A stretch of 64,000 bases of DNA. Source: Takakia lepidozioides (taxonomy: Eukaryota; Plantae; Bryophyta). Location of the stretch: contig CM060731.1 in assembly GCA_030704615.1 (NCBI GenBank), positions 18,476,001-18,540,000 on the forward strand, written 5' to 3'. A model generated the notes under the pieces. That model was given only the letters and a program-made list of their open reading frames with translations. It had not been told where the DNA came from and searched no databases. Within the stretch, counting starts at the first letter, position 1. Each line of letters starts with the position of its first letter. Made by a program: the position numbers and the translations under genes. Positions 11,501-59,395 of the stretch are shown here, one piece after another.

Positions 11501-12220
11501 TCATGGACTCCATTGGACATTCACAGAAGACACCCACCCCACTTCACAGCGATAACCAGAGTTGCATCAGACTGGTTCACAATCCAGAGTACCATCGTCG
11601 AACAAAGCACATAGACGTTCAGTACCATGTCATTCGCAAGAACCAGGCGAAGGGAGAAATTGATATTCAGTATGTTCACACGAACGATCAGATTGCCGAT
11701 ATTTTTACGAAGGCTCTTGGTCCAGACAAGTTCCTTCGTTTTCGCTCCATGCTTGGGTTGCATTCCACAGCAAGCAATCTCTGTGCAAGCGATCTTTGAA
11801 GCATGCATACAATGTCGGACTGAGTGGGAGTGTTGAAATCGAAGATCCAGTCCGTCATTGACATCTGGACCATGCTGGTCAAATAGTCATAGTCAACAAC
11901 TAGGTGGCAGTCCACCGAGCAGTCACAATCACAGATGCTAGTCAGCCACATTTTGAATCTCTAGCTAGTTGGATCTCCCGCACTTAATAGTACTTGTATT
12001 TTTTGGTGGCAGACGATACTTAGTTAGTTTTTATGTATGTTCATAGCGTGGTGTAGTTAAGCTTACAGATGCGTGAGCATCATTGATTTTGATGGATTGC
12101 CTTGTAGATTGATAAGCCGCGTACTTCTAAGTGTTTCAATAGTGTTGGATAGCTTCTTCATAACTTACTGGCTACTCTGTAAATAGCTATGAGCAAGCAT
12201 TGAAATCAGTATTTTCAAGA
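8536..12220 (+). mobile_element. Ty1/Copia retrotransposon, 3' half (PR-INT-RT-RNaseH, PPT, 3' LTR 11831-12220)
   Basis: SHMT (PR), LWHCRLGH/HTDVCGP/TPEQNGVAERENRT (INT), KARLVAKGFSQ, LFVDD (RT), IVWSSRKQ..STTESEY..HRRTKHIDV (RH). PPT GAGTGGGAG then TGTTG LTR, followed by TATAC. Stop at 9284-9286 and frameshift near 11120. Confidence 0.95.
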
Positions 12221-12799: not shown

Positions 12800-13750
12800 C
12801 CGCTGTCGCTCATCTTGAGCACACCACGGAGGCCCTTGCGGCGGAGGCAGCATCAAAAAAGGGCCACACCAGGAAGCAGAAGCCGAAGAAGGCTCAGAGA
12901 GTCGGCGAGCAGTCATCTCCAGCCAAACAAGACAAAGCCCAGATGGAGAAAAGCCAGGAAGGGGCGGATGAGACAGAGGACGTGCAGGTGGTGGAAGGCG
13001 AACAGGTTCAACAACATAGCAGAACGGGGATCACCGAGCATCTGGGTGGAATGGACCTAGCAAACGCACGCCGTGGCCCAGCCGAAGTCTGATTTTTCCG
13101 GGGGCTACTACCAGAGTACCTAAGTCAACGGCATTGCCCATAGCCATAAAGCAATCCTTGTTTGAGGCGCGTCCACTGCAAAAGTCTGTGCCGACTTGTG
13201 AGGTGAAATGCATCCACTGTGACAGCTTCGCACTTGTTGAGCAGCGGTTGGCAACCGAATCCACCACGAAGAGGTGGCCACCGGAGAGGGCAATGGTAGA
13301 TGCCTTCATTGAGCGCCACAAGTAGAGGAGGGAGCCTGTGCGTGGGGGGGTATCCGAACCCTACATGAAGGAAGACGCTGACCTCGTCATTGTGGATATC
13401 CCAGATGGGCATATGGTGCATAATTGTGGAGCAGAGGGTGTTGTGCCAGATTGGAATGTTCGGAAGCTTTCTCACATCAGCTCTGCCATATCGTTGGCAA
13501 ATGCAATCACGGATGATGTGGGGCGACTCCTCATTTTCTGCAAGGGTGACGGCAAGACAGAGATGGACCTTTGACGGATAGCGAGCAATGCGCCGTTTCG
13601 TTTTGTGAAGAGGAAGTGGACCTGCATGAATGCCCTCCCGCTCCTGACAGGCGACGAGCAGCAGCCACAGGTTCTCAGATTTGTGTACCCAAGCTCCATG
13701 CTGATCATAGAAAACCAACTTCATCTAACGTTTCGTTGTGTTCAATAAGC
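12800..13750 (+). pseudogene. Relic of transposon-associated amino-(N4C/N6A)-methyltransferase-like gene, N-terminal half
   Basis: DADLVIVDIPDG...VPDWN (motif-IV position) and FVKRKWTCMN, which matches LKKRWTCIN in the 16.2-17.0 kb relic. Contains stops and frameshifts. Confidence 0.5.
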
Positions 13751-14427: not shown

Positions 14428-15281
14428 TCATATATCACAACTACTTCCATAGGGTAAGCTCCACATGAATAAGAGATTGTCATGGCTCACCATTTGAAAT
14501 TCCATGTACCCCAGCCTAGTTCTTGCAATCTCATCAGTCCTTGCAATCTCCAGCCACTCTGCCCTCGTTGTGGAAACTTTAAGCTCCCACACACAAAATG
14601 TTGGTGAGATGTGAATTTGATCACGAGGCGGCCCAACCAGCAACAGGCACCCCTCACTCTCTCCAAGTCGACACCAACCTCTACCCATTTGTACAGCAAC
14701 TTTAGTCCACACACCCGTGCCAATGTCACAAGCCATCACAATGTAGTCTGCTCTATAAAATAGAGCAAAGAGAGTAGGGCCACTGTGCCACATATCACAC
14801 TTGCTATACAAAACGGAAGATCGGTTAATGAGGATATCTTTCCAGTTTCGGTCCAACACTCGCAAGTTGAGTCGTAGATGTCTGTTCTCCAACCTCCTCC
14901 GTCGTCAATGAATGCCATCACAAGGACCTTGTAGGTGTTGCTGCATCTATCCACAATCAATGTACTCTTTGCACTTCGGAATATTTTGAATTGTCGTGAG
15001 GCCGGGCAGGCAATTGTCTAGAAGTGTTCAACAGAGGATTGCACACACTGCATGATATGTCATCGTCGACCTCCTCCGTTATGCAAAATAAGCCTCCATC
15101 TGCAGCACAAACTCTGTTTAGTAAATTATCCTCGGGGAGTGGGGGTTGGAGGCCCATCCTATGCCACCGTCGAGTTGTGGGCGCATACAACGTAAGAACA
15201 TCTCCTGAAAACCAGAGATAGGAGTCTTGGTGAAGAGGGACGTGCTGACAGAGTTGTTGGAAACAAGCAGTAGATGGGAGG
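14428..15281 (-). pseudogene. F-box/kelch-type gene, 3' part (interrupted by MULE; 5' part at 22724-22845)
   Basis: ..STACFQQLCQ..YAPTTRRWH..AADGGLFC..VCNPLLNTSRQLP..YKVLV..DIYDS...W..CRLGESEGCLLLV..VWEL..W.EI. Two frameshifts. Confidence 0.85.
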
Positions 15282-16165
15282 GAGGTTTACTATTTCATGA
15301 GCCCATGAGCGTGCATCCACGGAATTAGAAATTATCTGCCGTTATTGACGGTAATAGGGCATATATCCACGGTAATAGGCACTATTTCTGAACTCCGGGG
15401 ACGCGGCTAGGCCTATTGCGGCGCCGTTATTCACATTTAGGGTTTGGAAAAAGAATTGAAAATGGCAGGAGACGGGTTAATCACGGTGCCGTAATGCCAG
15501 CTTCGTGCTTCTCAAAAAATTTCTTGGTAGTGATGACCTGAGACCGGCCTATTGCTGCGACATTTTTTTGTTTGTGGTCACCCAAAATTATAAAGTAAAG
15601 TTTGACATTGGCTTATTGCAACACTGTTATATCATTTGTAAAGGTCTTGTTGCTCCCAACACCTTACACTAGCCTATTGTTGTGTCATTTTTCTGTCGAA
15701 GATAAGAGGTCCCATCACATAATACAGTTGAATTGGCTTTTTTTTTAGACTAAATAAATCCCACACTGACTAAAGAGAGGCTAGGAAATTGCCATTCACT
15801 CTCCACCTAAGCTTGCAAAGTGTCCTCCTCATCGCCGTCACTTTCAGACGCGGACAGAGCGATAAACTTGAGTACTTTGGCCTTGACAATTCCTGTATTG
15901 GGCCTCCCTCAATTGTATTCTCTCATTTCTTGCAGCCAGTAACTGCTCTGCCCGATTAGGCCTCTCCGCCCTCCTAATGGATCTCTAGCAGCCGTGTTTG
16001 CATACAATGGGAGAAGAAATAAGAAGGGGAGGAGGAGACCGAAGTTGAGGAGGCTCAAGTACGGGAGAAACCGTTTCCCCCCAATGCATGTATTTGAGTG
16101 AGTTGCACCATTGTAAGTGTGTTGGGTTCAATTATAGCGACATCCATGTTTGACCATTATAAACC

Positions 16166-17020
16166 CTAAACGTTTGTTGACATATGGCAATATTTACGTA
16201 CTGCCATGTTACAGCCTTGCAGACTCGTCCAATGAGGAGATGGTTGATGAAACAAAGACTGAAATACAAATTTCATTCTTTGCCAGAAGGTCCTTTCTTG
16301 CCAGTCCTCATCGTCCTCATCATCCTCCTCTGTTGGCAACTGCTGCAGGCCCACTATATGGGAGTCGTAGAAAGTTGTTTTTCCTTCAAATGCAAAGACA
16401 TGCCGACTAGACTTGCACCCGGCCCAGTACATTGAAGCACCTATCCATGAGTCTAGTGATCAAGAACAAATATGTCAATGGTAATCGTGAGTAGCCATAG
16501 TAAATCCATGAATATCTACAGAAGATAATGGACTATAACCGCAATTACAAGAATCTCCTATTTGTGTTGGTTGCAATGTCCAACACCCTGCCTTCTATGC
16601 TTGAACATGTTTCCATCAGCATTTGAATGAAAGTGGGACTTCTTGTCCTCCCATGCCTCCAAGCCCTCCCCCCCATGTCCCATGGAATATTGCGTGGTGA
16701 GACATGGTTGAAGAGAATGTCATACTCTATAGGGTCCACTGTGGAGTCAACCATACAACCGTCTCCCCAGAATTCAAAACTGAATTCTTCTTGATGAATG
16801 TGTCAAATAGAAGAGGCTGCACAAAAACAAGGTCGTTATCTTGACATAAGATTCCCCACAATTAGAATAAGGATGCCGCAATTTACACTGGATAACTCTA
16901 GAGCTTACTTTCTGGCCATCGCAGGTTAGATGGTCTATGCTGTTGATACAAGTCCACCTCTTCTTCAGGATGGGTGCAACACTTCTTTCCGTCCACACTT
17001 TTAAGGCTTCCGCACTCATC
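16166..17020 (-). pseudogene. Beta-class N4C/N6A DNA methyltransferase-like gene relic inside the MULE
   Basis: Spliced reading: LKKRWTCIN..ITTLF..DPIEYDILFN..WR.GRTRSPTFIQMLMETCSSIEGRVLDIATNT|GASMYWAGCKSSRHVFAFEG, then an acidic tail. Matches the K/RPxxLxxxLIxxxSxxGDxVLDPFxGSGTT..A....R...G.E SAM-binding region of N6_N4 methyltransferases. Confidence 0.6.
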
Positions 17021-18694
17021 TTGTAACATATGTTAGAGAGCAATTTTGATAGCTGACAGAGAATTTTAATGAGACAGTAAAATAGTAGCAGACATTTGCA
17101 TACCTTCTCGGCCGGGTCCACACATGCGGTGGTGATATGATGTAGTTTTTCCACATCTCTGGTTTGATGGCTTTTGAGTAGTGCTTTGCTATCTCTGACA
17201 ATATTGTCTCTTAAAGGCTTGGGTCAGGGATCACTATAGACTTGACAACTTTGGATTTGTACTTGGTCCGTGACCGCTGCCTGCAAGGACGATGGCATCC
17301 CGGACGAGGGCCTGGGTCTTATTAGGGATCTCACTCTCAATGATTTTCGTTTTGTGTAGACCAAGTTGTCTTTTATGCAGCTCTGCAGTGCAAATGCAAG
17401 CAATTGGTTAGAGATCCAGGTGGTTGAAAGACAATAACATGCAAGGGGACTAACCGGAAAGAGGGCTGAATCTCACCAAATAGATGTATTCGACCATGGT
17501 GTCCAAGGTAAGCCAGCGTACTAGGTGCGGCCTGCTTTCACCTCTGACTTCCTTAACAACTTCGGATTGATGGCTATTTTAAAGTCCTTCAAAGGTGCAA
17601 GTCCCACTTCTTAACACAACATATGTGCCATGTGCGTTTTTACGCTTCTCTGTCACCCTGTCACAGAATACACACATTCCAATAATGACAACGCAATCCG
17701 GCCCGTATGCAGAGAAGAAATGATGACATTGAACCCAATTGGATGGGTCCGATATTAAAAGTGGCTGCTACGGAGACAGAAGGTCTATCATGAACAAGTC
17801 ATAGTGAGGGCGACGTTAATCCTCCGTCTGAGGATTCGTTGGAAAGTATTCGGATGACAACCTCATCGGCCAATTCTCGTACCTATATTTCATTATGAAG
17901 ACTTGCGAGGACTCTGGGCCAGGTCTATAAGTCATCCAATTCCAAATGAAACCAGGATATATTACAATTACGGCGCCATTGTATGCTACCGAACTTAGAT
18001 TTCTTAGCCTAAATCTGCAAGTACTTAGGTACGGACACCTCGACGTGAAACCCAACGGTCAATATTCACTGACTGCCGTACGCAATTTCGGCGCCGCAAT
18101 AGCGACTGTAGCGGCACGAGTACTTCATGTCTTTACAACCATTACAAAAATGCAAATTTGTAGAAAAAACGTCATTTCCATGTATAAAATTTGTCATCAA
18201 ATAGCAATGTCACTTATCATCCCTATAACAGTGTCATTGTTCTTCCACCACCTAGGTCAGTTCATTCATATTGCGGTGTCGTAATTCATCAGTAGAGGGG
18301 CCGACCGGCGTCAGGCTGGGACCGTTTATTCCTATTGCGGCACCACAATTCATCCAAAAAGACACCGCATATCATCCAAAGCGCTCTTTATCGTCTTCAA
18401 GATAGACCCATTCATCTAAATTATGGCGCTGAAGTTCATCCAATAGTGGAACTCATCCAGGCCAGGAATGCTTTCCGTTCCTCGGGATGGGCCCGTTTAT
18501 CCCTATTACGGCGCCGCAACTCATCAGTGTCGGGTTATCCCACTATGGGGATTGGCATGTTCATCCATAATATGGCATATTAATTCATTTGTGCCGGACT
18601 ATTCTGTTCTACAGATGGGCCCATTCAACTCTATTACGGCGCCGTATTTCAACAGTGCCGGGTTATCTTGTTCTGCGGATGGGCCGACTCTTTT

Positions 18695-19795
18695 TTCATT
18701 ACGGGTAGGTTCATCCCTATTTCGGCGCCAAAATTCATCCGTGGGCTTAAATTCATTTTGATTACGGGTACGTTCATCCCTACGGCGCGGAAATTCATCC
18801 GTAGGTCGAAATAATTTTTTGCTCACGGGTACGTTCTTCCCTATTTCGGCGTCGAAATTCATCCATGGGTCGAGATAACGTTTTGCTCGCAGGTATGTTC
18901 ATCCCTATTTCGGCACCGAAATTCATCCGTGGGTCAAAATAATGTTTTGCTCGCGGGTATGTTCATCCCTATTTCGGCGCCGAAATCATCCGTGGTCCGA
19001 AATAATTTTTTGCTCACGGGTATGTTCATCACTATTTCGGCGCCAAAATTCATCCGTAACCGGGTTTTTTTTTTTTTTTTTTTTTTTTAGCCCCTGGTGT
19101 TGGTTCCTCAGGATTGGCCTATTTCGGCGCCGAAATTCATCCATGGGTCGAAATAATTTTTTGCTCACGGGTATGTTCATCACTATTTCGGCGCCGAAAT
19201 TCATCCATGAAGGAGGTTCTGAGTGTGTGTATGGGTTTTTTTTTCGACGTGATGGGCTCGATCGTCCCTATTACGGCGCCGCAATCTAATGGTTCCGTCC
19301 CCTTGTCGTCCGCATTCTTGCCTGTTCAACCCTTTTGCGACATTATGATTCATCCATCTGCTCACGGGTACGTTCATCCCTATTTCGGCGCCGTAACTCA
19401 TCCGTGGGTTTAAATTCCTTCTTGATATAGGGTATGTTCATCCCTATTTTGGCGCCGAAAATCATCTGTGGGTCGAAATAACTTGTTACTCACGCGTATC
19501 TTCATCCCTATTTCCGCGTCGAAATTCATCCATGGCTTTAAATTCATTTTTGCTCACGGGTTCGTTCATCCTTATTTCGGCGCCGAAATTCATCCATGGG
19601 TGGAAATTGTTTTTTTCTCACGGATAAGTTCATCCCTATTTCGGCGCTGAAATTCATCCGTCGGTGGAAATTCTTTTTTTGTTCACGGGTAAGTTCATCC
19701 CTGTTTCGGCACCGAAATTCATCCGTGGGCTGAAATTTCTTTTTGCTCACGGGTATGTTCATCCCTATTTCGGCGCCGAAATTCATCCGTCGCCG
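18695..19795. repeat. Tandem array, ~64-bp unit with palindrome ATTTCGGCGCCGAAAT, ~15 copies
   Basis: Unit GGGTATGTTCATCCCTATTTCGGCGCCGAAATTCATCCGTGGGTCGAAATAATTTTTTGCTCAC. Degenerate copies extend ~18080-22440. Confidence 0.95.
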
Positions 19796-20224
19796 GGATG
19801 GGGTGTTCGAAATCAGCTACGTTCAAAGTGTGTTAATCTAGGAATTCATCTAGATGATGACATTCTCAATTGATTGTCATCTCGTTCACCCCTATTACGA
19901 CGTCGTCATAGCGGTGTGATATCCCTTTCTCGTCCGCTTTCGTGTCTGTTCATCCCTATTGCGGCGTCGTAATTCATCCATCCCGAGGGTTTCGAACTGT
20001 CATATTGGGATTGTTCATCCCTATTACGACGCCTTAAATTCCTCCAGATCATGCCATTCTCATTTGATTGTCATCCCGTTCATCCCTATTACGGCGCTAT
20101 AATAGGGGTGTGACATCTTTTTCTCGTCTGCTTTTGTGCCTGTTCATCCCTTTTGCGTCGTCGTAATTCATCCATCCCGAGGGTTTCATATTGTCATGTC
20201 GGGATTGTTAATCTCTATTACGAC

Positions 20225-20790
20225 ACAAGGAAGAAGTTGGGCGAGAGGGATATGAAGGAACTGCTGGAAGCTGGGAAATGGACTGCAGCATTGCGAGAAG
20301 CTATAAGATCGACACCCTTACACCATCGGGGGGACTGTCTCGAGGGTGATGTCCACAATTGGCCGGTGAAGAGAATAATTGACGACCTCCCAGGAGGCGA
20401 CGGGGATTCATGGAGATCAGATATGGACATCCGCACTCAACCTCGGGGCCCAACGATGTTGCTTAGGACATTAGGTGCAAGCAGGACTCCCACTCCCTCT
20501 CCGTCACAGTCGGTGGAATCACTGCCGGACAATGCACTGCGTCACGAGGACGAGCCTGAGCTGCATTTCAGATCGTTACCCAATACGGCAGGCCAGTCGT
20601 GGAGAAAGATGTATCTGCAAACACCTGTAAACTCTTCCCCTGAAAACACTTGTACTACAAATATCTGAAGCGCATGAAGTGCATTCCTACAGTGGATGAC
20701 TTCATCCATGCTCCAACATTGAGCTTCAACGAGCTCCACGAGCTCCTCAGCCAGGATATAGGGAGAAGGTTGACATTGGGCGATCGCAAT
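20225..20790 (+). pseudogene. C-terminal relic of a SWIM-type MULE transposase
   Basis: P*KHLYY (PCKH SWIM end, with TGA at the Cys codon) followed by DDFIHAPTLSFNELHELL. Confidence 0.5.
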
Positions 20791-22723
20791 TCAGAATCTG
20801 TAAAGTGTGTTACATCACATATACCCTTTCAGTGTTGATATTGCGGCGCCTTTATCCCTTCGAAACTTGTGGACCTCATATTGTGACCTTCATCCCACTA
20901 CACGCAAGTCTTTTGGCAAGAACTATACATTTTGGTGCCGTCGTGTTTCCATGGACTGCCCTATTACGGTGTCGTAATAGGATAAGTGTCCCCTTCCAGC
21001 CTGTATCTTTGAATTATGGTTTTGTCTACTAATGGATCAGTGTAAAACTTTCATTTTTTGGAGATGCAGGGGCCAATTTTGGCCTATTTTGGTGCCTTTA
21101 TTCCTCTGAAACTTCTGCACTTCATATTGAGATCTTCATCCCATAGCATGCATGTCTATTAGCAACAACTCTAGATTTGGTCCCGTTGTGTTTCCATCGC
21201 CTACCCTCTTACGGTGTCGTAATATGGGAAGTGTCTCCTTTAGTTCTGTTTCCAATAAGCATGCCTCTAATTCTGCAATTGCTTGTTAATGGATCAGTGC
21301 AAAGCATACATTTCTTAGAGATGCAAAGGCCCATTCAGGCCTATTCCGGTGCTTTGATCTTTCTGAAACTTCTGGACTTCATATTGTAACCCAATTTTGA
21401 GACATTTATCCCGCAACATGCATGTCTGTTGGCAAAAAACTTTACATTTGTGCCGTTGCGTTTCCATCGCCTCCCCTATTACGGTGCCGTAATAGGAGAA
21501 GTGTCCCCTTGTAGTCTCTTTCCAATAAGCATGCCTTCAATTCTGGTTTTGTTTAATAATGGATCAGTGCGGAGCGTTCATTTTTTGGAGATGCATGGGC
21601 CCATTGTGGCATATTTATCCCTGAACTCACTTTTGCTTCCAATGATATGGCTATGTTTGCCACATGCAGTGCCTTTAATGGATTACAGGTGTCTTGTTCC
21701 AATGTCCATGGCGCCTAGTATTAATGATTACTGCATTCACATACTGCACCTTGTCCACAAAGACCATTCCCATACACAGACCACACGTCCCAAAAATTGT
21801 TATGCTCAATTGCAAACCGTACAGATGAGAGATGATATGTGCAATGGAGCAACAAGCAGAGCAGAATGAGACCGAGGCCGGCAGAATTGGATATCATTGC
21901 TCCACCACCAACGTGGTATGGGGCAAAACTCAAAATTTCTCCACATGTCGGTACATTTATTGCACATATACACCACAAGATTCAGCATAGTTTGCAATTG
22001 CCAGTCTCAGGCCCCATTTCGGGGTCAACCGTCCTACATTTTGGCGCCTTTGATGCTTCACTGCGGTCAAATCAACCGACACATTTTGGACATGGGTGCC
22101 CAATTTCTGTGCCGTTAGCAAGGAACATCACCTATTTCGAAGTCCTGGAGAATCGTGAAATCCTCGAAAAGTACTATCCACGAAACAGGTCCACATTGCG
22201 CGTCTGGCAGGACCCCGAGTCCTCTATTTCGGCGCCTTTATTGCCTTCACTCCGGAGCCTTCAGCCGCCTATTGGTTTTCCGGTGCCCAATTTCGGCGCC
22301 GTTATCCCCAGCCAGCCTACAGTTCTAGAAAAGTACAATCCACGGTTACAGGCCCACATTGCGTGTTGGGAGTCTGGAAAAATCGATTGTAATTCCGCGG
22401 GCGCCCCTTCCTGTGGGGTAATTGCGGCGCCGTTATTGGCCAGTATGCAGTTTTTCCATGATCTGGGCTGGCGGTACATGAGCTTGGGCTCTCGGTCATG
22501 AGCGGATACTGTTATTCATGAGCGGAGTGTTTTGAGCATGAGCGCGGAAATCTTCGAAAAGCAAATTTTGATCTTCACAAAGTATTAAAAAAATACCACT
22601 TTCGATTATTTTATGGTTTATTTCCTGAAAAAAACCTGCCGTTATTCGTAGTGTGTTACTTGGCGGCTCATGGCTCATGCATGCCCGCTCATGGGCTCAT
22701 GAGCTCATGGAATAGCAACCCCC

Positions 22724-22845
22724 GATGGGAGGGAGTTCCACAACTTGCAAACCGACTTAAAGTGGGCAAGACTTCGATACGGCAACCAGGCCAACACTAC
22801 CATCACTAACTCAAGAGGGAGCCTGCTCCAAATCTCCACCTCCAT
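22724..22845 (-). pseudogene. F-box gene 5' part (F-box motif)
   Basis: MEVEIWSRLPLELVMVVLAWLPYRSLAHFKSVCKLWNSLPS, continuing after the MULE at 15272. Confidence 0.9.
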
Positions 22846-28040: not shown

Positions 28041-29424
28041 CATCAGCATACCAACAATTACTCTCAGCCATGGTAACTCTAGAAGATTGAGCCCTGTGAA
28101 CAGTGTATGCAGTGCTAATATTGACCTCTGGAGACATACTCTCCACTTGATTTGCTTGACTTTCTGCTGCCTTCTTATCAGGACACTCGCGCTCCCAGTG
28201 TCCTCTTCTTCCACAACCATTGCAATGAGTTCGTTTCTTCAATTCCTCGATTCTCCTTCTCTTTTCCTGACGTTCAGCATACGTCAATCTTGGCTTACCA
28301 TCACCGCTTCCGCTGTTGTTCATATTACCTGGCCGACCAACAAAAAAGGCCTTATCTCTGGCTTCATCAAATGCTCCTCGTTCTTTGTTCAGGGTTTCTT
28401 CTTTTAGCAGTCTTACGGTAAGTTTCTCGATCGTCTGCTCATCGTTCGGAACACTGTCCCACGCTGAGATCATGTGTCGGTATGAAGGAGGTAAACTGCA
28501 AATAATCTTGGTGATTACTGCTCGATCTGTTGTGGCCTCCCCAAGATCGTTAAGCTGGCAGGCCATGGACTCTATGGTGCTAATGTGTTCAGCTACATCA
28601 TCACCATCACTCATCTTGTATTCAAAAAATTTCTGCTGTAGCATATGGATATTTTCGCTTGCGCACTGCTCATGAATGGTGATGAGACGACTCCACATCT
28701 TTGCTGATGTCTTGCATGCAATGAGTTGCTGCATGCGCTTCTTGTCTACCGACCTACAGATGTACAAAGAAGCACAGTTATCCTTGTCATCCCACTCATC
28801 CTGATCCAAAGCTTCTTCTCTCAATTCTATTCCCTCAACAACACGTAAAAGCTTCTTTGCTCGGAATAGCACTTGCATTTGTAACTTCCATAGTTGGAAG
28901 TTATCTCCCGTGAACTTCTCAATATTCGTCACATTCTTAGAATCTGTCTTCACTGACGCCATTTCTTCTATCACCCTTACTTCTACAGAAAGAAAACCTC
29001 TCACATAGCATTAAGCGATTGTGGGCCCATAACCTCTTGAAAATACTGATTTCATTGCTTGCTCATAGTTGTTTACAGAGTAGCCAGTAAGTTATAAAGA
29101 AGCTATCCAACACTATTGAAACACTGAGAAGTACGCGGCTTATCAATCTACAAGGCAATCCATCAAAATCAATGATGCTCACGCATCTGTAAGCTTAACT
29201 ACACCACGCTATGAACATACATAAAAACTAACTAAGTATCGTCTGCCACCAAAAAATACAAGTACTACTAAGTGCGGGAGATCCAACTAGCTAGAGATTC
29301 AAAATGTGACTGACTGGCATCTGTGATTGTGACTGCTCGGTGGACTGCCACCTAGTTGCTGACTATGACTATTCGACTAGCATGGTCCAGATGTCAATGA
29401 CGGACTGGATCTTCGATTTCAACA
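28041..29424 (-). mobile_element. Ty1/Copia retrotransposon, 5' half (5' LTR 29035-29424, PBS, gag)
   Basis: 390-bp LTR ~97% identical to 11831-12220. PBS GGTTATGGGCCCA. gag KFTGDNFQLWK..SLPPSY..CNGCGRRGHWEREC ending at WYAD. Preceded on the element strand by TATAC. Confidence 0.95.
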
Positions 29425-29691: not shown

Positions 29692-32600
29692 TGTCGCGGC
29701 CCTTTGCCTTGAGGGCAGGGGGTCGGGACACATGAGGGGCTGCCCCTGTGGTGGGGGCAGCGGCAGCGATAGGTATGGGGGGTTGAAGCACCCTTGAGTG
29801 CCCAAGGCACTCAGGGAAGCGGAGGCGCTCACTAGGTGGAGCCCCGCACACCGGGTTGCGGTGGGGGTGGCTCCACAAGGGGTGGTGGTAGCTTAGTGGG
29901 ACTTAGTGGGGGTGGCATAGGACTCACCATGGGGGCGGAGACCTCGTGGTGGGAGTCGTGGGGAGTCTTGGGACTCATCACGGTCCATAGGGGCCGTGGT
30001 GAGCGGGCCAAGACTCACCGCGACTCACCACCGGGAATCGAGGGTCTTCGTGGTGGTTTGCCATAAAATGGCATGGCTGGTTGTGAAACCCCCGCGGACA
30101 GCTACAAAAGTATATATAGGGAGTAGTAACCTCGAGAACGGTGCAAGCCCGTTGGTGACCAAAAACTAGTGAGTAAGCGAGCGAGCCGGAAAGCGACCAA
30201 AGAGTGGGGAACTGTTCCGGACTGCCATTTACCAAAGGGAATTCTCCTAGTCCCAAATAGGTGGAGGGTCGAGAGGGAAGTGAAGGGGGACCGTTATGTC
30301 CCGGTGAGCAGCCGAAGCTCCAAGTTGGCCCGGACGGCCAGGTTGGGAGTCAGGCGCGCGCATCAAAACGAGTAACTATGACTTGAAGGGGAGCTTATCG
30401 AAGTGAGGTGCGCGACACTTGGTATCAGAGCTTAGAGTTCAGTACGCGATCGTCCGTGGGATTGGCCTCATCATGGGGTCGGGCAAGCCGAAGCGAAAGC
30501 GGAACGGCCCAAAAGATGATGATCCTGGTGAGCCCGATGGGGGCGACGTGTCACCGAGGCGGCCGTTTGAGGAAGCGATGAATGTTTCCGAAAATGAGGC
30601 CGCTCAAGAGCGGGAGGAATCTGAGGAGTCGGAGCCCGAGGAATCCTTGAGAGCTCCGACAAACCAAGAGATGCCTCCCATGCCGGCAGCCTTTTGGGAA
30701 GGGTTGTTGGCGCAGTTTGGCGGGACGTTGAAAGACGTGTTGAAGGCGGCTAATGCCACTTCCACTAAGGCAAAGTTTAAGGTGAAGCCTAAGAAACCCG
30801 ACACCTTCGAGGGCATCCGAAATCGGAAGGCACTCAACGCCTGGCTCTTGGAGCTGGAGCAGTACTTCCGGGCGGCCAAGTTGAGTGACGAGGATCGCGT
30901 GGAAGTGGCTCCCACCTATTTGAGGGGCTATGCTCAACAATGGTGGCAGAAACGCCTTCACGACCGAGGTCCAAGTCCGGAAACCTTGAACTGGAGTGGG
31001 TCAAGGAATTGATGAAGAGACAGTTTGTGCCCCTCAACGCGTCCTGGCTTGCCCAGGACAAGATGAGGAATTTGAAGCAAACAGATGACATTCGGGGGTA
31101 TGTCCAGGCTTTCAATGTGCTGTTGCTCGAAGTCGCGGACATGGCAGAACCAGAAATGGTCTTCAACTTTGTGGCGGGACTGGCCCCATGGGCCAGGCGG
31201 AAGTTGGAGGAGAAGCCACCCAAGACTTTGAACGAGGCAATTGAGAGGGCTGAATGTTTCTCGGATGTCCCTAGGGGTGAGAGACAAGGCCGTACGGAGC
31301 TGAACCACAAGAAGACCCGGCGGGAAGGTGACTCCTTCCGACCAGAAAAGAAGTGGGATAGGCCACGCGGCGATAATGGCACGTGGAAATCGAAGGGAGG
31401 ACCTTCACACGTCAAGGCGGCACCCGGTGCTTCGAAAAGAAAAGCGGGTGGAGCGGCTTATGGCGGACAGAAGGCGACCTTTGATGGAGTGTGTTTCAAT
31501 TGCGGGGAGCCCGGGCACATGGCCAAGAAGTGCACAAAACCTCGTCAATTGAACATGACTCGGGCAACCACGGAGCTGTCGGAAGATACCATCAGTCGCT
31601 TGGTGGAAGCGGTGGTTGCCAGGACTTGCAAGGTAGGCAACTATTCTTGTGAGTTGTATCAGGAAACTGGCGCCCTACGTAAAGAGAGTCAGTTATTGTT
31701 CGTGGAAGGGATAATATCCGGAACTAACGTGTCGTTGTTGGTGGACACAGGAGCGTCGCACTCTTTCATGACGCCGGCGACGGCGCGAAAGTTGGGACTC
31801 CCGACAAGTGACGTGGGGGCCTCTATTGAGGTGCGTTCTGCCAAAGGAGAACCACAGTTGGCGACAAGGTTGGCGTTTGATGTTCCTCTTCAACTGGGGA
31901 GTTGGGAGGGACGTGAGAACTTCACCATCTGCGAGATCGATGGAGTGGATCTCATTTTGGGGATGACCTTTTTGAGCAAATCCGGAGCGGTCATAGATGG
32001 CCGCAAGAGAGTAGTCACGCTGCCATGTGGGAATGGTGGCGAGGTCTTACGAGTGTCGGAAACGCCCAAATCCGTGGGAGGGCGAATAAACATTCTATCA
32101 GCAAGGGAGTGGGCCGTGGAGGAGGCACACGAGCCCCAATTTTTGCTTTACATTAGAGAAGTGAAAGGAGAAGGCGATGGGGAGCCGAGCCCAGATTGGA
32201 TCAAGGAGATTTTGGAGAAATACCAGGATGTTATGTCGGAGGATTTACCAAGCGGCTTGCCACCGCGAAGAAGAGTTGACCACAAAATTGAGGTGATACC
32301 GGGATCGGAACCGCCTGCCAAGGCGCCCTACCGGTTGAGCCACAGAGAGTTGGTCGAGCTGAAGACTCAGCTCAAGGATCTAATGTCAAAGGGGTACATC
32401 CGGCCGAGTAAGTCACCTTACGGAGCCCCGGTGCTATTTGCAGACAAGAAGGATGGGACGCTGCGGATGTGTGTCGATTACAGGGCTCTGAATAAGGTGA
32501 CTATAAAAAACCGGTACCCTTTGCCAAGGATCGACGATCTCTTCGATTGGTTGGCAGGAGCGAAGTATTTCAGCCGGATCGACTTGCGCTCTGGCTATCA

Positions 32601-35600
32601 CCAAATTCGGGTGGCGGAAGGAGATGAGGAGAAGACCGCGTACAGGACAAGGTATGGTTCATACGAGTTCTTGGTGATGCCTTTTGGGTTCACCAATGCA
32701 CCAGCGACATTTAGCACGCTGATGAACAGCCTTTTCCAGGAGTGGTTGGATGACTTTGTGATCGTGTACATCGACGACATCTTGGTGTACTCGAAAACAA
32801 AGGAGGAGCACCTGGAGCACCTCAAAATGGTGTTCCAAAAATTGCGGGAAGGGAAGCTTTACGCCAAAGCTTCAAAGTGCGAATTCGGGGTCACGAAAGT
32901 GGAGTTCTTGGGGTATGTGATTACACAGGATGGGATCAAAATGGATGACAAAAAGGTGAGGGCGATCTTGGACTGGGAGCCTCCGACTTCGGTCCCGGGA
33001 GTGCGATCCTTCCTAGGACTCGCCTCCTATTACCGGAAGTATGTGAGAAATTTCGCCAAGATTGCGGGGCCGCTGTCGGACCTTCTGTGTAAATCTAAAG
33101 TCTGGGCGTGGAACACCTTTTGTGGCCAAGCTTTTGCTGAATTGAAGCAACGGATGGCGGAAGCTCCAGTCTTGAAAATCCCGGAGTTCGATCGTCCGTT
33201 CGAGATACATACAGATGCATCGGACTTCGCGATTGGGGGTGTACTTATGCAAGATGGACGTCCAGTGGCTTACGAAAGTAAGAAACTGAATGAAGTGGAG
33301 CGACGGTGGCCGACGCACGAAAAAGAGATGAAGGCGGTGGTGCATTGCCTTGAGCTCTGGCACCACTATGTTGGTTCCAACCCAGTGAAGGTGTTCACGG
33401 ACAATGTCACGGTGAAGTATTTTGCCACGCAGCCCAAGTTGTCCCCAAAACAACTTAGGTGGCAAGATACTTTGGCGGTGTTCGACGTGGATATCCAGTA
33501 CAAACCGGGACGAGACAACGTGGTGGCCGATGCTTTAAGTAGAAAGAAGCAGCTCTTGTTGGTGTACAAGGGCGAGACGGCGCTCCAAAGGAAGATCCGG
33601 AAGGCTTGCCGGAAGGATGAGCTGGCGAAGTCCGTGATGCAGGACTTGAGGATGGGGGTTAAATCACAGTTCCACTTGCAAAATGGACTGCTCCGGTATA
33701 AGCAAAAACGTCTCTACGTGCCGAAGGGAGGGATCAGAGATAGCCTCTTGAAAGAATGCCATGATAGCCCGCTTGCGGGCCACGGCGGAGCCAAGCGCAC
33801 TACGGCACTCTTGAAGAAAGAGTATTTCTGGCCCAAACTGAGGGAGGAGGCAGAGGAGTATGTCAAGACATGCACCACATGCCAACAAAACCGGAGCGAG
33901 TACAAAAAGCAAGCGGGGCTGTTACAACCCTTGCCGATTCCAGAGGGGACTTGGGAATGCGTCTCGATGGACTTCATGACTGCTATGCCGCTGTCAAAAG
34001 GATTCGATGCAATCATGGTGGTGGTATATAGGTTCAGTAAAATGGGCCATTTCATCCCCACCAAGGAGACGGCAACGGTGCAGGAGACAGGGCGACTTTA
34101 CTTCGCCCACGTCTTAAAGCATCATGGAGTCCCGAGGGATATTGTCTCGGACCGCGATCCAAAGTTTACGAGTAAATTCTGGAGAGCACTTTGGAAGAAG
34201 ATGGGGACGAGGCTGAAGATGAGCACCGCCTTCCAACCTACGACCGACGGCCAAACAGAAAGAGTGAATTCCGTAGTGAAGCAGATCTTGCGGAATTACG
34301 TGTCGGCAGACCAAACAGACTGGGTGGAACACTTAGACGCGGCAGAGTTCTGTTATAATAACACAGAACACTCCGCAACGGGAGTTTCCCCTTTCGTATT
34401 GGTCTATGGAAAAGCACCTCTGGTGCCGACAAGTTGGGCCGCCAAGGACGTTGAGGAACCGGCAGTAGCGGCGGTACTGGAAGAACGCGAGCGTTTGTTG
34501 AAGCTCGCAAAGTACAACATTGCCAAAGCTAGGAAACGGTATTAAAGGCAGGCGAATCGGAAGCGGAGGGAAGTGAAGTTTGAGGCAGGCATGGAGGTCT
34601 GGTTGAACATCAAGAATTTCCAACTACCTCCGGAAGTGAGTCCGAAGTTTGTACCTCCGTATGCGGGACCTTTTCGCATTCGGAAGGTTATGAATGAGGA
34701 TGTGTATGAATTGGAGCTACCGGCAAACAGCAAGGTGCACCCAGTATTCCATGTCTCCCTTTTTAAGCCTTACTTCAAAGATGAAGCGCGGCCGAATCGG
34801 CATCAAGTGTTGCGTCCGCCACCTATGCTGTTGGATCATGAAAATGAACCTGAGTACGAGGTGGAGGCAATACTTAAGTCGAGGAGGTTCAAGAACCGAG
34901 AAACTGAGTATCTCGTCAAATGGAAGGGCTATCATCATGTGGAGGCATCTTGGGTGCGTGCCTCAGAAATGGGAAACGCATCCGAGGCGGTTGCAGCTTT
35001 CGAAGGGCGACCTCAAAAGCGGAAGAAGCGTTGATGGGGACATCAACCTTGGAGCGTGGGGGAGGAAATGCATGCTTAGCCCGGCTTAGCTAGCTTAGTA
35101 ATCCGATTGCAAAAACTTGTATTGTACCAAAACGTGCTATAAATGAAATGGATTCCAAATGTTGTGCGTCCTATATTGTTTGGAATGGTGATGCATGGTA
35201 TGGTTGGCTAGTGTGTAGAATGCATGCTAGCTTATAAAAGTGGGAGAGGTAAATTGGGTTAATCGTGTGTTTGCGTAGTGCCGAAATCGGGTAACCCCCA
35301 TCCAAGGGGCGAGGAAACTTGCGCCTTCTTTGGGAGTTCACGTGCTAGTGCGCACCTGGCACGTGCGCGTACTATAACTGCGCTACCGAGGGGGTTGCCT
35401 TGTAGTGCAGGCTAACGCGGAAGCTACGTGCTTCCGTTCACGTACTATAATCGTGTAGCCTCGGGACGAAGTCGTAGTGCGGCTTCGGCGTGTTCCCGTA
35501 CCTCAGGCCAGCATTCCAAGGCGGACCCAATTGTAGTGATTGGGGCGCACGGTTGGTTCAAGGTTATCTTCCTAGTCAAAGAGGGTTCCAGGTGAACCCT

Positions 35601-36666
35601 TGCTCAAGGTGATGCCAAAAACGGCCTCATGAGCGATCGCAAGCAAGGTTGTTGCAGTAAGGCGATTCGATCCTCGGGGAGGATCGTTCCTTGGCCTTAC
35701 AGTAGGCTAAGAAGAGTGCACTGGGAGGAGCTGGAGAGGCTCCACCCTTGGCCGGGACTTGGAGGAAGTCGGCCGAACTAGCTAGTGGAGAGTAGAGTCA
35801 AGTGTGGGGTTTGGTTCTTTGCCATGGGACGCCATGGTACGGAAACAAACTCCTTGATGTGGGACGCCACAACTTGGATGTTCGTTTCTACAAAATGGAC
35901 AAGTCGATGAGGACATCGACTCCCTGTTGGTAGGGGTGTGTGTCGCGGCCCTTTGCCTTGAGGGCAGGGGGTCGGGACACATGAGGGGCTGCCCCTGTGG
36001 TGGGGGCAGTGGCAGCGATAGGTATGGGGGGCTGAAGCACCCTTGAGTGCCCAAGGCACTCAGGGAAGCGGAGGCGCTCACTAGGTGGAGCCCCGCACAC
36101 CGGGTTGCGGTGGGGGTGGCTCCACAAGGGGTGGTGGTAGCTTAGTGGGACTTAGTGGGGGTGACATAGGACTCACCATGGGGGCGGAGACCTCGTGGTG
36201 GGAGTCGTGGGGAGTCTTGGGACTCATCACGGTCCATAGGGGCCGTGGTGAGCAGGCCAAGACTCACCGCGACTCACCACCGGGAATCGAGGGTCTTCGT
36301 GGTGGTTCGCCATAAAATGGCATGGCTGGTTGTGAAACCCCCGCGGACAGCTACAGAAGTATATATAGGGAGTAGTAACCTCGAGAACGGTGCAAGCCCG
36401 TTGGTGACCAAAAACTAGTGAGTAAGCGAGCGAGCCGGAAAGCGACCAAAGAGTGGGGAACTGTTCCGGACTGCCATTTACCAAAGGGAATTCTCCTAGT
36501 CCCAAATAGGTGGAGGGTCGAGAGGGAAGTGAAGGGGGACCGTTATGTCCCGGTGAGCAGCCGAAGCTCCAAGTTGGCCCGGGCGGCCAGGTTGGGAGTC
36601 AGGCGCGCGCATCAAAGCGAGTAACTATGATTTGAAGGGGAGCTTATCGAAGTGAGGTGCGTGACA
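29692..36666 (+). mobile_element. Full-length chromoviral Ty3/Gypsy retrotransposon (Galadriel/Tcn1-like)
   Basis: 726-bp LTRs 29692-30417 and 35941-36666 (TG..CA, 10 differences counted). TSD GGCAT. PBS TGGTATCAGAGC at 30420. Confidence 0.97.
30473..35034 (+). pseudogene. gag-pol of the chromovirus (CCHC, PR, RT, RH, INT, chromodomain)
   Basis: [59 protein letters not shown]. One frameshift near 30990 and one stop at 34543. Confidence 0.93.
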
Positions 36667-47384: not shown

Positions 47385-49401
47385 CTATGCAATCAAGTCC
47401 TCATTCTCATCTAAGAGGACTTCTTCCCTATCCAAAAACTCTTTCATGGAAGTACTAAAGCAACCAACTCTAGCATCATTTGGCCAATTCTTGACTACAC
47501 TCACAAGCATATCAAGGTTTTCAATATTTAACCTGCACCGTCTCAAGCTTGTTATGACACCTGCAATACTAAAAACCCTCTCAGCTTCAATCTGAGATCC
47601 AACTATGCCGAAGATTAGCCGTGCCAAAAATCCCACATATGGAAAGAGAGACCCGTGTTCTTTCCACCATTTCAAAGGAGCCACGCACTCATCCTCAATT
47701 ATCTTCGTCCTTCTGAAATGTGATAGTTGTTCTCTCACTACTGTCAATGTCACATCTTCATTGTGGTCATGCACACCAAATAAGGACATCTCGTCCATTA
47801 TGGAAGTGGGCTGTGATTGGGCCGGAGTATCCGGATGTAAGACCTTGAAACACTTTACCAAAAGAGGCTCTAACACCATGCTATCATATTGGGACACAAT
47901 ATGCAAAGCACGTTCTTTGCCCACATATTGTGATACCAATGACAACCCCTTGTAACGTGGGTCAAGCATAAGCGCGAGCATATTGTGAGCTTTGCGCGAT
48001 TGAAACCCTTCCAAAAAAGAAAGAAATGGTTCCAAGACATATACCACCTCTCGAGCCATCCGCCATTCCAACAATGTCAACTCTGTTGAGAAATCCCCCA
48101 TGCAATGATCCACAGTTGCAGCCCTGGGAGCACTACTTCCTCGCATGCAAATTGTTGTGGCAATGGCTGCATTAAGAACATTGGACAACAGCCAAAATCC
48201 CCCAGATTGATTCATAATGCACTCATGAACCATAGGCCCTAGAACTGTAGAAATTGATTGGGCAATGGCCCACACTTGTGGACTTGGTATGCGAGACTGC
48301 AGTGCCAATGAGGTTTGCCTAGAGTAACAAGTGATTATGGCTTGCCTAAACTCCAAACTCTCTTGGAAGATGATCACCTTGGAAGCAAACCGTGTCTTCA
48401 CCGGAGTCTTCAATTTGTGGGGATGAATGCCGCTGTCCACACATGCCTTTGCCCATTCTTGTCTCGCTTTGCCATTTTTTTTTGTCCAAGTAATGGTTTT
48501 TTGCAACTCTGATCGGGCATTTTTTATAGAAACTGATCTCATATCTGTGCATACTTTTGCATCATTTGTTGCATACCGGCAACACTTGGACATTGCATGC
48601 CCAAAACAGCTACCCACAAATGGAGAATCCAACCCCAAACACGCACATGAGACCACCAAATTCAAAGCATTGGTCAAAGTGGCCAAGTTACCTCCCTCAT
48701 CTTTGACGTAAGCACTAATGCGAGTGTTGAGGCCATACTTCACAAAAAGATTGTTGACTTGATGTGCCATGGCAGCCCCAGATGTGTCAGGTGTCTCAAA
48801 CATGCCAAGAGTCACATGACATTGCTCCCACTGTTCATTAATAAAGTGCGCTATGATGACAAAAGTGTCAGTTCCCCTCTTGACATCCACAAATCAAAAC
48901 TCACAGAGCAAGTAGCACAACTCTGAAGAGATGGGGGCATGTAGCGCTCTTTCGTCTTCTCTGCCAAGATTGGAATGGCATCATTCACAAATGTCCGTCG
49001 AGAAGGGAAAACAATCCGAGGATTTTGCCTCAACACCATCCTTCTTAGCCAAGGGGATTCTACCAAAGACAGTGGAACCAACTCCTTTGCAATGAACAAG
49101 ATTAAATCCTCATTGAACTGCTTCTGTTGATCATCATTTTGGTTGTATGGAGTGGAGCTCCCAAAAAAAGAAGTTATGTTTCCAGGAGTGGGGCTGGGCC
49201 TCTTTTTTGCTGGCCTACGGGCCTTCTCAGGTCCTTCATTTTCCCTCTCAATCCACCTACGCAAAACAATGTCATGTTCTTGATCCACATGCTTTCGAAG
49301 GGCAGAGATACCATTGGTTTTATTATAGGTCACAATGCCCTTCTTGCTTGCAGGAGTGACACCAACAGGATGACATAGAACACACCTCATTTTGTTATGG
49401 A
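47385..49401 (-). pseudogene. hAT transposase (BED finger, DDE, dimerisation domain), 3' part
   Basis: MRCVLCH..LRKHV, SFDLWMS, KDEG, CFGH, KTRF, LDPRYK, PLKWW..ERVFS. Frameshift near 48880. Confidence 0.92.
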
Positions 49402-55329: not shown

Positions 55330-56260
55330 GACTCAGGGATTTGTTTGCTAGACCTGTTTGGAGGCATGAGCACTGGGCTTGCAGGAGTGTTGCAAGCTAG
55401 GATTAAAGTATGCAAGTACTTGTATGTGGAGAAGGATGAGATAGCTCGGCGTATTTCTATGCGCCACATCGCCTTGCTCACACACCGGTATCCTGAGTTG
55501 TTGCCTCTCTCAGCAATTCAAGGGTATCAAAAGGCCTTGCTAGCAGACATTACCTTGCTGGGGACGGATAATTTGGACTGGCATGGTGCCATTGACTTGG
55601 TGATAGCTGGATGGCCTTGCCAATGACACTCTCCCACAGGTCATGGGAACGGCTTGCATGATGCTCGATCGCATTTGTTTTGGGAGATGTTGAGAGTGTT
55701 GCGTGACTTGCAGACGAGGCAAGTGCAACCTCTAGCCTATATCTTGGAGAATGTTCCTCTTATGGGGGACTCTCGGGCCAGGGTTATGGCCAGTGTGCAT
55801 CAAGTGCGGTCTTGGATTGGATCGGCGGTGCTATTGGATGCAGCAGCGGTGGGATCACGAGCATCGACCTCGATTGTGGTGGACCAATCTTGCACCACCA
55901 GAGCTGCTCAAAAGAGCATACGATTCCATTCAACGGCCACCCAATCTCACACTTGAGGGCATTTTGGATCAAGGGAGGCAACCACAGAGGGTGCGACATG
56001 ATGACCGTCCACCTCTAGTAGTGGTAAATTGAGTGGGGCAGCCACGTGCGGCCTTGCCTACGCTCATGAGCTTTCCCTCGTCTCATGCTTTTCGAGACAA
56101 TGGTCCTGGGTTGATTTGGACAGTGTGCTACAGCAATTGGTGGAGCCCAATGCAGATGAGCGAGAGCGGGCAATGGGATATGCCACGGGCACTACAACTG
56201 TGCCAGCTCTGTTAGAGGCATCATGCCGACATGTGTTGGGTCAAGCAATGGAGAGAATTG
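55330..56260 (+). pseudogene. DNMT3-like C5 cytosine methyltransferase domain within the retrotransposon pol
   Basis: Motif I LLDLFGG (55345), II YVEKD, IV DLVIAGWPCQ (PC at ~55615), VI YILENV (~55747), VIII (RA)HRPRLWWTN, IX ERERAMGY, X LGQAM, in canonical order. Confidence 0.92.
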
Positions 56261-59256: not shown

Positions 59257-59395
59257 TGCATGCTATGTGGGCATGCTGGTGGTGCCGCGACCATGTTGGT
59301 GTGTGACAAATGCTCAAGGGGGTGGCACATGGGATGCTTGACACCGCCACTTGAGGAGGTTCCTAGTGGAGAATGGTTGTGTCCACGATGCCTTG
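59257..59395 (+). other. PHD finger at the integrase C-terminus
   Basis: CMLC..MLVCDKCSRGWHMGCLTPPLEEVPSGEWLCPRC is a C4-H-C3 PHD, in frame with INT. Confidence 0.93.

Follow-up and report, generated by a model that had tools for sequence, protein, structure and literature searches.

The closest described counterparts of the gene analysed here are carried by algal DNA transposons. In Ectocarpus, the element Sola1-1_Ec32 bears, on the strand opposite to its transposase, an accessory gene with ParB-like and N4C/N6A methyltransferase domains, and the accessory protein has been suggested to bind the element that encodes it and to modify it (PMC12477816). For red-algal Plavaka elements, PAG2 is described as a PF01555 domain with a SET domain and PAG3 as a ParB domain with a 2OG oxygenase; homologues occur in Mutator elements of Chondrus, and tandem arrays of inverted repeats adjoin the ParB gene (bioRxiv 10.1101/2025.02.11.637652). 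The VANDAL elements of Arabidopsis, with VANC, are anti-silencing Mutator-like elements (MULEs) that have a 9-bp target-site duplication (TSD), short terminal inverted repeats (TIRs), an accessory gene and element-specific tandem repeats (PMC5735166). DN4MT1 of Marchantia and N4CMT of bdelloid rotifers, both encoded by host genes, keep an intact SPPY motif, and their 4mC activity has been demonstrated (10.1101/2021.02.12.428880, PMC8885841, PMC10406627).

The window analysed here is a stretch of 64,000 nucleotides from the moss Takakia lepidozioides, in which an earlier note had recognized a MULE with a methyltransferase-like passenger gene. We consider it probable that the element is a Mutator-like derivative, present in multiple copies and likely non-autonomous, whose cargo, a ParB-like plus methyltransferase-like gene, has had its catalytic half deleted and is likely dead, and that the intact system is likely self-binding. 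The features are collected in Table 1.

Table 1. Features of the element and its surroundings, in window positions
Feature	Position	Strand	Evidence
Isolated catalytic-side exon, other member of the cargo family, outside the element	13368..13670	+	E 4.5e-7, E 8e-10
Left TSD, GATGGGAGG	15273..15281		
Mutator-like DNA transposon of 7442 bp, likely non-autonomous, in multiple copies	15282..22723		
Left TIR, short and imperfect, with CATGAGC repeats	15282..15319	+	25 nt at 92%
Last cargo exon (RHVFAFEG strand) and acidic tail	16250..16440	-	spliced model 33.4 bits versus family profile
SAM-side methyltransferase-like exon, ends VLDIATNT; frameshift near start, non-GT donor	16562..16816	-	
Fusion exon with the deletion junction close to 17001; 3' end of the catalytic-side methyltransferase exon at 17001-16909	16909..17019	-	
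Helical middle exons of cargo, one stop and one frameshift	17104..17382	-	matches 17270-17181, 17151-17101
Cargo exon after the ParB-like exon, two stops and one frameshift	17478..17643	-	six-frame scan E 0.004; 35.8 versus null maximum 20.1, 0/72
Tandem array 5' of cargo gene with units of 64 bp and 194 bp, core palindrome ATTTCGGCGCCGAAAT	18242..20224		
SWIM-like relic, ~45-aa tail, divergent from cargo gene, without DDE core	20629..20760	+	profile score
Three to four ~250-270-bp repeats with core motif ATTTCGGCGCCGAAAT	20839..21656		
Right TIR	22678..22723	-	
Right TSD, GATGGGAGG	22724..22732		9/9 identical to left
F-box domain of host gene split by the element	22729..22830	-	Pfam PF00646 E 1.5e-9

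Boundaries and copy number of the element

The boundaries proposed in the earlier note are confirmed by the perfect 9-bp TSD, by the short imperfect TIRs (an alignment of 44 columns with three mismatches and an 8-nt gap, for a length of about 36-44 nt) and by the split F-box gene. Excising the element and one TSD in silico restores the F-box reading frame, which resumes at 15281. Contigs that pass directly from the left flank to the right flank, without the element, were present in 4/4 runs (X1, X6, X7 and X8); these are empty-site or paralogous copies. The interval 15150-18250 is covered in 30/30 bins by X1 contigs. Contig depth is about 620-1580 in the element interior and 55-85 at its lowest, which suggests some ten or more copies of the element, depth itself not being a copy number. 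In two presumed RNA runs coverage is confined to the F-box flank and has no bearing on expression. The element copy itself is likely to be dead and inert.

A decayed and internally deleted cargo gene

Relatives of the cargo gene are loci on metagenome contigs that were picked on a WDGNHR motif. Among the 110 motif loci, about seven resemble chance non-plant matches (for example L267, L297 and L301) and were excluded from the Pfam flank scan, which covered 118/221 ORFs of at least 105 aa. Six blocks of the resulting family are colinear on the minus strand of the element, and five of them exceed all null tiles in at least one profile. The SAM-side exon matches the family with E 6.7e-6 and E 2.7e-6 (40.9 versus a null of 18.1), reading VLDIATNT where the family majority has VLDIAANT, and the middle-exon matches score 21.6 versus 15.0 and 22.9 versus 20.1 for the null (0/72 each). 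Taken alone, the last exon scores 19.8 versus a null maximum of 20.0 (1/72), and the end of the catalytic exon is above the null in 1/3 profiles and at 1% in hhalign by itself. No match to the ParB-like exon was obtained in this copy (13.2 versus a null mean of 14.3).

The peptide from which the earlier note read an intron-containing relic is present in two frames, at 16562-16802 and 16370-16440, and the intron-like gap of 121 nt between them falls at the position of the family intron, after DxxAxT. The donor is AT and not GT, with no family variant listed there, a point against the favoured reading.

The motif-IV strand is missing from the fusion exon. Among the relatives listed, 26/26 have a distance of at least 1.0 kb from the start of the middle exon to the catalytic exon; in this copy 243 nt lie between the middle exon and the end of the catalytic exon. 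At least 1.1 kb has been deleted from the cargo gene here, the catalytic motif-IV strand included. Contigs from X1, X2 and X6 diverge from the window exactly at 17001 and read on in frame as catalytic-exon-like residues (DGDVTENDI, ADGVVIAHDV and ADGEVTENDI by hand translation, where the isolated exon at 13.4 kb has GDGKTEMDL), so that sister copies retain what this element has lost. The isolated exon carries DIPD at the motif-IV position and one stop. The stops and frameshifts of the relic are common to the family majority, and the 17 differences from that majority listed for 16420-17300 include none that repairs the frame.

The relic belongs to a plant family of intron-containing genes in which a ParB-like N-terminus and a beta-class amino-methyltransferase-like part are fused; this member has decayed and has suffered an internal deletion. 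The gene is a regular component of this multi-copy element family and of related elements. The picture of a lone prokaryote-type passenger has to be given up: the relic is the tail end of a larger fusion gene with a ParB-like part, and the catalytic half of that gene has been deleted here.

Relationship to beta-class amino-methyltransferases

The plant family aligns with 94 prokaryotic beta-class enzymes over 194 columns (HHalign 96.2%, E 2.2e-9), the reversed and shuffled controls reaching 0.4% and at most 0.8%, respectively. In the comparison of the family with PF01555 the homology is in permuted order, the catalytic half preceding the SAM-binding half in the chain, and the family sequence P0008 matches PF01555 with E 7.9e-4. 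The relic alone gave no Pfam match to N6_N4 methyltransferases and scored -2.1 bits against the profile of the 94 enzymes, which in turn had no match on the 64-kb window or on the spliced tail. The link to the beta class is therefore transitive: the likeness noted earlier holds by descent through the family, which the relic matches at 33.4 bits, but not as a direct match. Judged from its sequence, the relic is a descendant of beta-class amino-methyltransferases.

With structure models of relatives (pLDDT 44.5 and 67.4), Foldseek returned methyltransferases only at E 2-6 and no match at E<=0.001, and nothing relevant was matched in PDB profile searches that used alignments of the family and of the transposase-like relics. 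Fragments of the window found no match among PDB sequences, in phage by tblastn or in a protein search of metagenome contigs, and two chance loci only among viral contigs; two fragments were without a match in 5.8 billion proteins. No match came from phmmer against 1.84 billion representatives, the query being a single-frame read-through that is mostly in the wrong frame. The ESM Atlas yielded one weak methyltransferase-like lead (0.90), below the recognition threshold, and none in a second search. Candidate catalytic motifs within the relic were rejected: SDP*P/SEIA and IISPPH align to the non-enzymatic middle exons, and YDLFMIDL matches nothing.

Motif IV in its canonical form, [DNSH]PP[YFW], occurs in 0/20 relatives, as does SPPY; the consensus is [DN][IV]P-x, with D or N first in 16/20 relatives, DIPW in two and DIPE in the most intact ones, and the motif is deleted in this copy. 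In the motif I region, VLDIA[TA]NT-G/S ... FAFE, the D and the G align with those of DPFxGxG, and the E further on aligns with the acidic residue that follows the next strand, while there is no counterpart of the F or of the first G; the relatives have DWNAST-G or DLxxxT-G.

We regard it as unlikely that the intact relatives have amino-methyltransferase activity by way of a variant catalytic motif and place 4mC or 6mA on the elements that carry them, this copy being a dead derivative. Full-length colinearity with beta-class enzymes, the D/N residue that opens motif IV, the two DIPW sequences and the long open exons kept in both halves of L260 are consistent with activity, and methylation is predicted in the algal papers (PMC12477816; bioRxiv 10.1101/2025.02.11.637652). 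The lack of a canonical motif IV and the departure of motif I from DPFxGSG nevertheless argue against it, and the most intact relatives, with DIPE, lack the aromatic residue that stacks the target base in the model of N4CMT. With 0/20 canonical motifs, none of them SPPY, and the catalytic half deleted here, the proposal of a mobile reservoir for 4mC/6mA enzymes of plants is unsupported at this locus.

Gene arrangement and the putative transposase remnant

Thirty loci have at least 4 kb of upstream DNA. A transposase-like relic is present at 12/30, on the opposite strand in 12/12, several of these being one insertion assembled twice (about 8-9 are distinct); no such relic was found at 18/30 within the upstream DNA covered. 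A divergent SWIM-like relic like that of this element occurs at two further loci (L285/L318). The (W)DGNHR motif of the relatives presumably represents a ParB-like domain, and Pfam gave no ParB match in them; the DGNHR motif and the algal papers suggest the ParB label for the N-terminus of the family.

Capture of an unrelated repeated gene in the manner of a Pack-MULE, its position opposite the SWIM remnant being incidental, is very unlikely. Such a capture would agree with the truncation and deletion of this copy, with the same-family fragment at 13.4 kb outside any TIRs and with the 18 relatives in which no transposase-like neighbour was seen, but not with the consistently divergent order at the other loci, nor with an array motif that is found throughout the element, both subterminal regions included.

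The SWIM-like remnant is of CKH type, and is similar to the relics at L285/L318; a profile built from two related relics gives it a score of 38.1 (null maximum 19.5, 0/94). The SWIM transposase relic of the earlier note is reduced to a ~45-aa SWIM-like tail. No SWIM (PF04434) or MULE Pfam match was found in the element or in the transposase-like relics of the relatives, and this element also yielded no DDE core, as is expected of a non-autonomous derivative. The conserved transposase-like relics of the relatives, for which there is no Pfam or PDB match, have a D...D...xFHW layout that we take to be MULE-like. The Mutator label therefore rests on the TSD length, the TIRs and motifs read by eye, which suggest that the transposase of the system is of Mutator type.

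That the element should instead be placed in a different DDE superfamily (hAT-, Sola- or KDZ-like) is decidedly unlikely in view of the SWIM-like finger and the seemingly MULE-like layout of the relatives, even though a MULE profile matches nowhere and the TIRs are short. In algae the same cargo type switches between superfamilies (bioRxiv 10.1101/2025.02.11.637652), which favours another superfamily, but the 9-bp TSD and the G-rich TIR ends fit MULEs, and both TSD and TIR lengths lie within the MULE norms of 8-11 bp and 14-500 bp (PMC6446971).

Palindromic array

The 64-bp array, with its 16-bp palindrome, lies between the cargo gene and the SWIM-like relic in a CpG-rich region (18242..20224, o/e 1.34). 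The core motif occurs 55 times in the element, counting both strands, and 0 times in the remaining 56.6 kb of the window. Palindrome-bearing arrays are also found upstream of the cargo gene in the relatives L263, L291 and L305, and that of L291 has the core TTCGGCGCCGAA in common with this element. A clear array was not seen in most relatives, and the excess of palindromes upstream of them is modest (90 in 73.9 kb versus 41 in 55.9 kb). ATTTCGGCGCCGAAAT is a candidate binding site for the cargo protein.

Comparison with described systems and proposed function

As in Sola1-1_Ec32, a presumably two-domain cargo gene lies antisense to the transposase, which is represented here by the SWIM-like relic inside the TIRs. 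Unlike that element, the host is a Mutator-like element of a land plant, this likely dead copy has no catalytic half and the relatives have no canonical motif. The methylase and ParB cargo on DNA transposons, Mutator included, and the adjacent inverted-repeat array recall PAG2 and PAG3, but those are separate genes with other partner domains, whereas the ParB-like and methylase-like parts are fused in the plant family. VANDAL elements share the 9-bp TSD, short TIRs, accessory gene and tandem repeats as possible binding sites; VANC, however, is an unrelated protein of shown function, whereas that of the Takakia cargo is a proposal. With DN4MT1 and N4CMT the family has in common a eukaryotic setting for a beta-class fold, putative in the family, that came from bacteria, and it differs from them in being without SPPY, ParB-like-fused and transposon-linked.

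In the self-binding system that we favour, a full-length parent would comprise, in order, a TIR, the transposase in one direction, the palindromic repeat array, the ParB-methyltransferase-like gene in the other direction and a TIR. The ParB-like part of the intact cargo protein would bind the palindromic array of its own element, as ParB does parS, and the methyltransferase-like part may act either as a pseudo-enzyme that binds SAM and DNA or as a weak enzyme of non-canonical type. The protein might thereby aid the escape of the element from silencing or its mobilization, the latter in trans. The anti-silencing or self-marking role raised in the earlier note is also what published proposals envisage for the algal counterparts, but a working 4mC/6mA writer is not supported. 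It is possible, if doubtful, that the element represents an undescribed land-plant Mutator-like clade with parS-ParB-like self-recognition, in which the cargo loads on its own palindrome array and the methyltransferase-like domain protects or marks it; this would be a second anti-silencing system, independent of VANC, with higher-copy sisters that retain the catalytic exon in this genome.

Self-binding and self-marking have already been published as an idea for algal transposons, and the present case is less new than the earlier note implied. This element adds no plant 4mC/6mA enzyme; if the variant motif were active, its sister elements would be transposon-borne 4mC/6mA writers in plants. Clean TSD and TIR boundaries unite in it a ParB-methyltransferase-like cargo, its antisense position and a palindromic array, so far a matter of algal transposons only. 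With these three features in one bounded element, and with ATTTCGGCGCCGAAAT as a candidate site, the idea that transposons bind and modify themselves becomes testable in land plants.

Element boundaries and host gene

The earlier note's call of a TIR- and TSD-bounded Mutator-like element with an antisense relic was upheld (see the table of features). The element splits an F-box gene, and excising it along with a single TSD lets the frame run from 22729–22830 into 15281 (145 codons). The left flank was joined to right-flank sequence in contigs of all four runs compared (X1, X6, X7 and X8). The gene content of the window is that of a plant (OPT/YSL transporter, PPR; copia, gypsy and hAT relics). 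Contigs of run X1 cover 30 of 30 bins across 15150–18250 and its interior contigs are about ten times as deep as the lowest ones, contig depth being only a rough guide to copy number; these contigs place the cargo region in a multi-copy family. A second depth peak, several-fold above other parts of the element, lies at 16086–16189.

Features of the window, with scores of the family exon blocks against null tiles
Feature	Position	Strand	Details
Element	15282–22723		Flanked by two identical GATGGGAGG copies; TIR short, imperfect
F-box domain of split gene	22729–22830		PF00646, E 1.5e-9
Family exon block	17643–17480	−	35.8, null maximum 20.1
Family exon block	17270–17181	−	21.6, null maximum 15.0
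Family exon block	17151–17101	−	22.9, null maximum 20.1
Family exon block	16721–16563	−	40.9, null maximum 18.1
Family exon block	16417–16382	−	19.8, null maximum 20.0; equalled or exceeded by 1 of 72 null tiles
Tandem array			64-bp and 194-bp units, palindrome ATTTCGGCGCCGAAAT; between cargo gene and SWIM-like relic
Loose catalytic-side exon, same ParB–methyltransferase-like family	13368–13670	+	DIPD motif, one stop
Chromodomain gypsy element	29692–36666		726-bp LTRs, 98.6% identical; 1218-aa open frame
hAT transposase relic	47385–49411	−	PF05699, E 3.5e-11
C5 DNA-methylase-like relic / PHD finger of gypsy-like retroelement	55627–55953 and 58216–59403	+	

Identity of the cargo gene

For the antisense relic, window fragments found no match in Pfam, PDB sequences, 5.8 billion proteins or (by protein) metagenome contigs, nor did a phmmer query, mostly in the wrong frame, among 1.84 billion representatives. 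Likewise, neither the six window frames nor the spliced tail matched a profile made from 94 beta-class methyltransferases of phages and prokaryotes. A scan of metagenome contigs with the motif WDGNHRxxAW gave 110 loci, mostly intron-containing and plant-like, and we infer that the latter are moss DNA. One such locus, L314, matched the exon quoted in the earlier note (tblastx E 4e-5), and two family profiles built without window sequence selected the same exon as the best of all six-frame window chunks (E 6.7e-6 and 2.7e-6). Against the family profile, a spliced relic model with hand-picked joins reached 33.4 bits. With frameshift-tolerant alignment scored against null tiles, family exons were colinear on the minus strand of the element; the same alignment did not detect the ParB-like exon, the helical exon next to it or the main part of the catalytic exon. 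With one of three profiles, the final 21 residues of that catalytic exon aligned to 16971–16909. L314, the nearest match to the window exon, has its own internal deletion, its ParB-like and SAM-side exons lying within 1.1 kb, and also bears a divergent transposase-like relic.

Methyltransferase ancestry and doubtful activity

The spliced family aligned with beta-class enzymes, a prokaryotic set picked by DPFxGSGTT and an upstream catalytic motif, at 96.2% in HHalign (E 2.2e-9, 194 columns), against 0.4% for the reversed control and at most 0.8% for 20 column shuffles. PF01555 matched three relatives at E values of 7.9e-4, 0.021 and 0.022, all below the Pfam cut-off. The amino-methyltransferase likeness claimed previously is real through the family, although the direct searches with window fragments and the beta-class profile gave nothing. 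The diagnostic beta-class motif IV is [DNSH]PP[YFW] (PMC4738411), and its tyrosine is modelled as stacking on the target base (PMC10406627). The canonical form occurs in none of 20 relatives, [DN][IV]P-x being usual and DIPE occupying the position in the most intact. Structure models of relatives (pLDDT 44.5 and 67.4) had no Foldseek match at E ≤ 0.001, with methyltransferases appearing at E 2–6. Given this homology and the noncanonical motif IV, the sequences indicate a family derived from a methyltransferase whose activity is doubtful. This copy is unable to write any mark, and it seems unlikely that the relatives include an active 4mC/6mA writer. An apparently near-intact multi-exon ParB-like and methyltransferase-like gene (L260:160–3887, minus strand) carries DIPE and DWNAST-G.

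Deletion and decay

The cargo gene carries a deletion. The start of the middle exon precedes the catalytic exon, which spans about 0.3 kb, by 1.0–2.3 kb in all 26 relatives listed; in the window the distance from the middle exon to where the catalytic exon ends is only 243 nt. Because contigs of X1, X2 and X6 diverge from the window at 17001 and continue with in-frame residues fitting the catalytic exon (hand translation), and depth rises several-fold across 16930–17020, that exon is probably retained by a sister family of higher copy number in this genome, of which the depth peak is a mark. Across 16420–17300, 17 differences between the window and the family majority are listed. None is an indel and none mends the AT donor, the stop or any of the frameshifts, differences near contig ends being hidden. 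Most simply read, the cargo gene was already dead when this subfamily spread. The loose exon at 13368–13670 has a charged linker upstream and is flanked by an LTR-like repeat on one side and the F-box gene on the other.

Transposase-like neighbours

A conserved, divergently oriented transposase-like relic occurs in 12 of the 30 loci whose upstream sequence reaches 4 kb or more (about 8–9 distinct insertions), on the strand opposite the cargo gene in all 12. Together with the multi-copy cargo region, this bears out the cargo as a regular component; its incidental capture is very improbable. The divergent SWIM-like relics of two relatives, L285 and L318, match window 20629–20760 (38.1 against a null maximum of 19.5; 0 of 94), the former having first been spotted through a weak match of the window itself. 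Of the SWIM transposase relic described earlier, a SWIM-like remnant is seen, but no transposase core (DDE) is left within the element. The relics of the relatives found no naming match among Pfam or PDB profiles. Their MULE-type label is suggested by DDE and CxxH-like motifs, which we take to be MULE-type, with the 9-bp TSD and the TIRs. Such TSD and TIR features are described for MULEs (PMC6446971). Origin from another transposon superfamily, which overlaps our main reading, is quite unlikely.

Other features of the window

In the gypsy-like retroelement at ~52.5–59.4 kb, the reverse transcriptase is preceded by a relic resembling a C5 DNA methylase (PF00145, E 1.4e-4, slightly short of the cut-off), and a PHD finger follows the integrase; the retroelement is probably the other DNA-modifying element alluded to in the earlier note. 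The segment 46333–46624 recurs inverted at 63166–63388, and a 390-bp inverted repeat pair (11831–12220 and 29035–29424) lies beside two copia relics.

Palindromic array and proposed function

Counted on both strands, the core motif of the array occurs 55 times within the element and nowhere else in the window. Array CpG o/e is 1.34, compared with 0.4–0.9 elsewhere, and CpG sites deviate from the unit consensus slightly more than other C/G positions (10% versus 6%), a pattern compatible with low methylation or with recent homogenisation. Palindrome-bearing tandem arrays also immediately precede ParB-like genes that are relatively intact (L291:2274–2459, L263:1234–2380 and L305:2290–3056); the unit is distinct in each element, the L291 core TTCGGCGCCGAA being common to the window. 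Most other relatives show no clear array upstream of the gene.

Comparable cargo is described in algae. PMC12477816 reports an Ectocarpus Sola element in which a gene for ParB plus an N4C/N6A methyltransferase lies on the strand opposite the transposase, and cites like algal cases. A Bostrychia preprint (bioRxiv 10.1101/2025.02.11.637652) describes PF01555 and ParB accessory genes, their homologs in Chondrus Mutator elements, and inverted-repeat arrays adjoining the ParB gene. No land-plant case was found in the open-access literature searched, although some could be listed in the supplements to the Ectocarpus and Bostrychia papers and to PMC12973397. Passages of PMC12973397 on active plant TIR elements do not mention ParB.

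Taken together, we consider it probable that the element derives from a Mutator-like element and is now dead and non-autonomous; its structure, the homology of its cargo and the deletion are seen directly. By the algal accounts and by analogy with VANDAL/VANC (PMC5735166), the ParB-like domain of an intact cargo protein would bind the palindrome of its own element, and the methyltransferase-like domain would be a pseudo-enzyme or a non-canonical enzyme.
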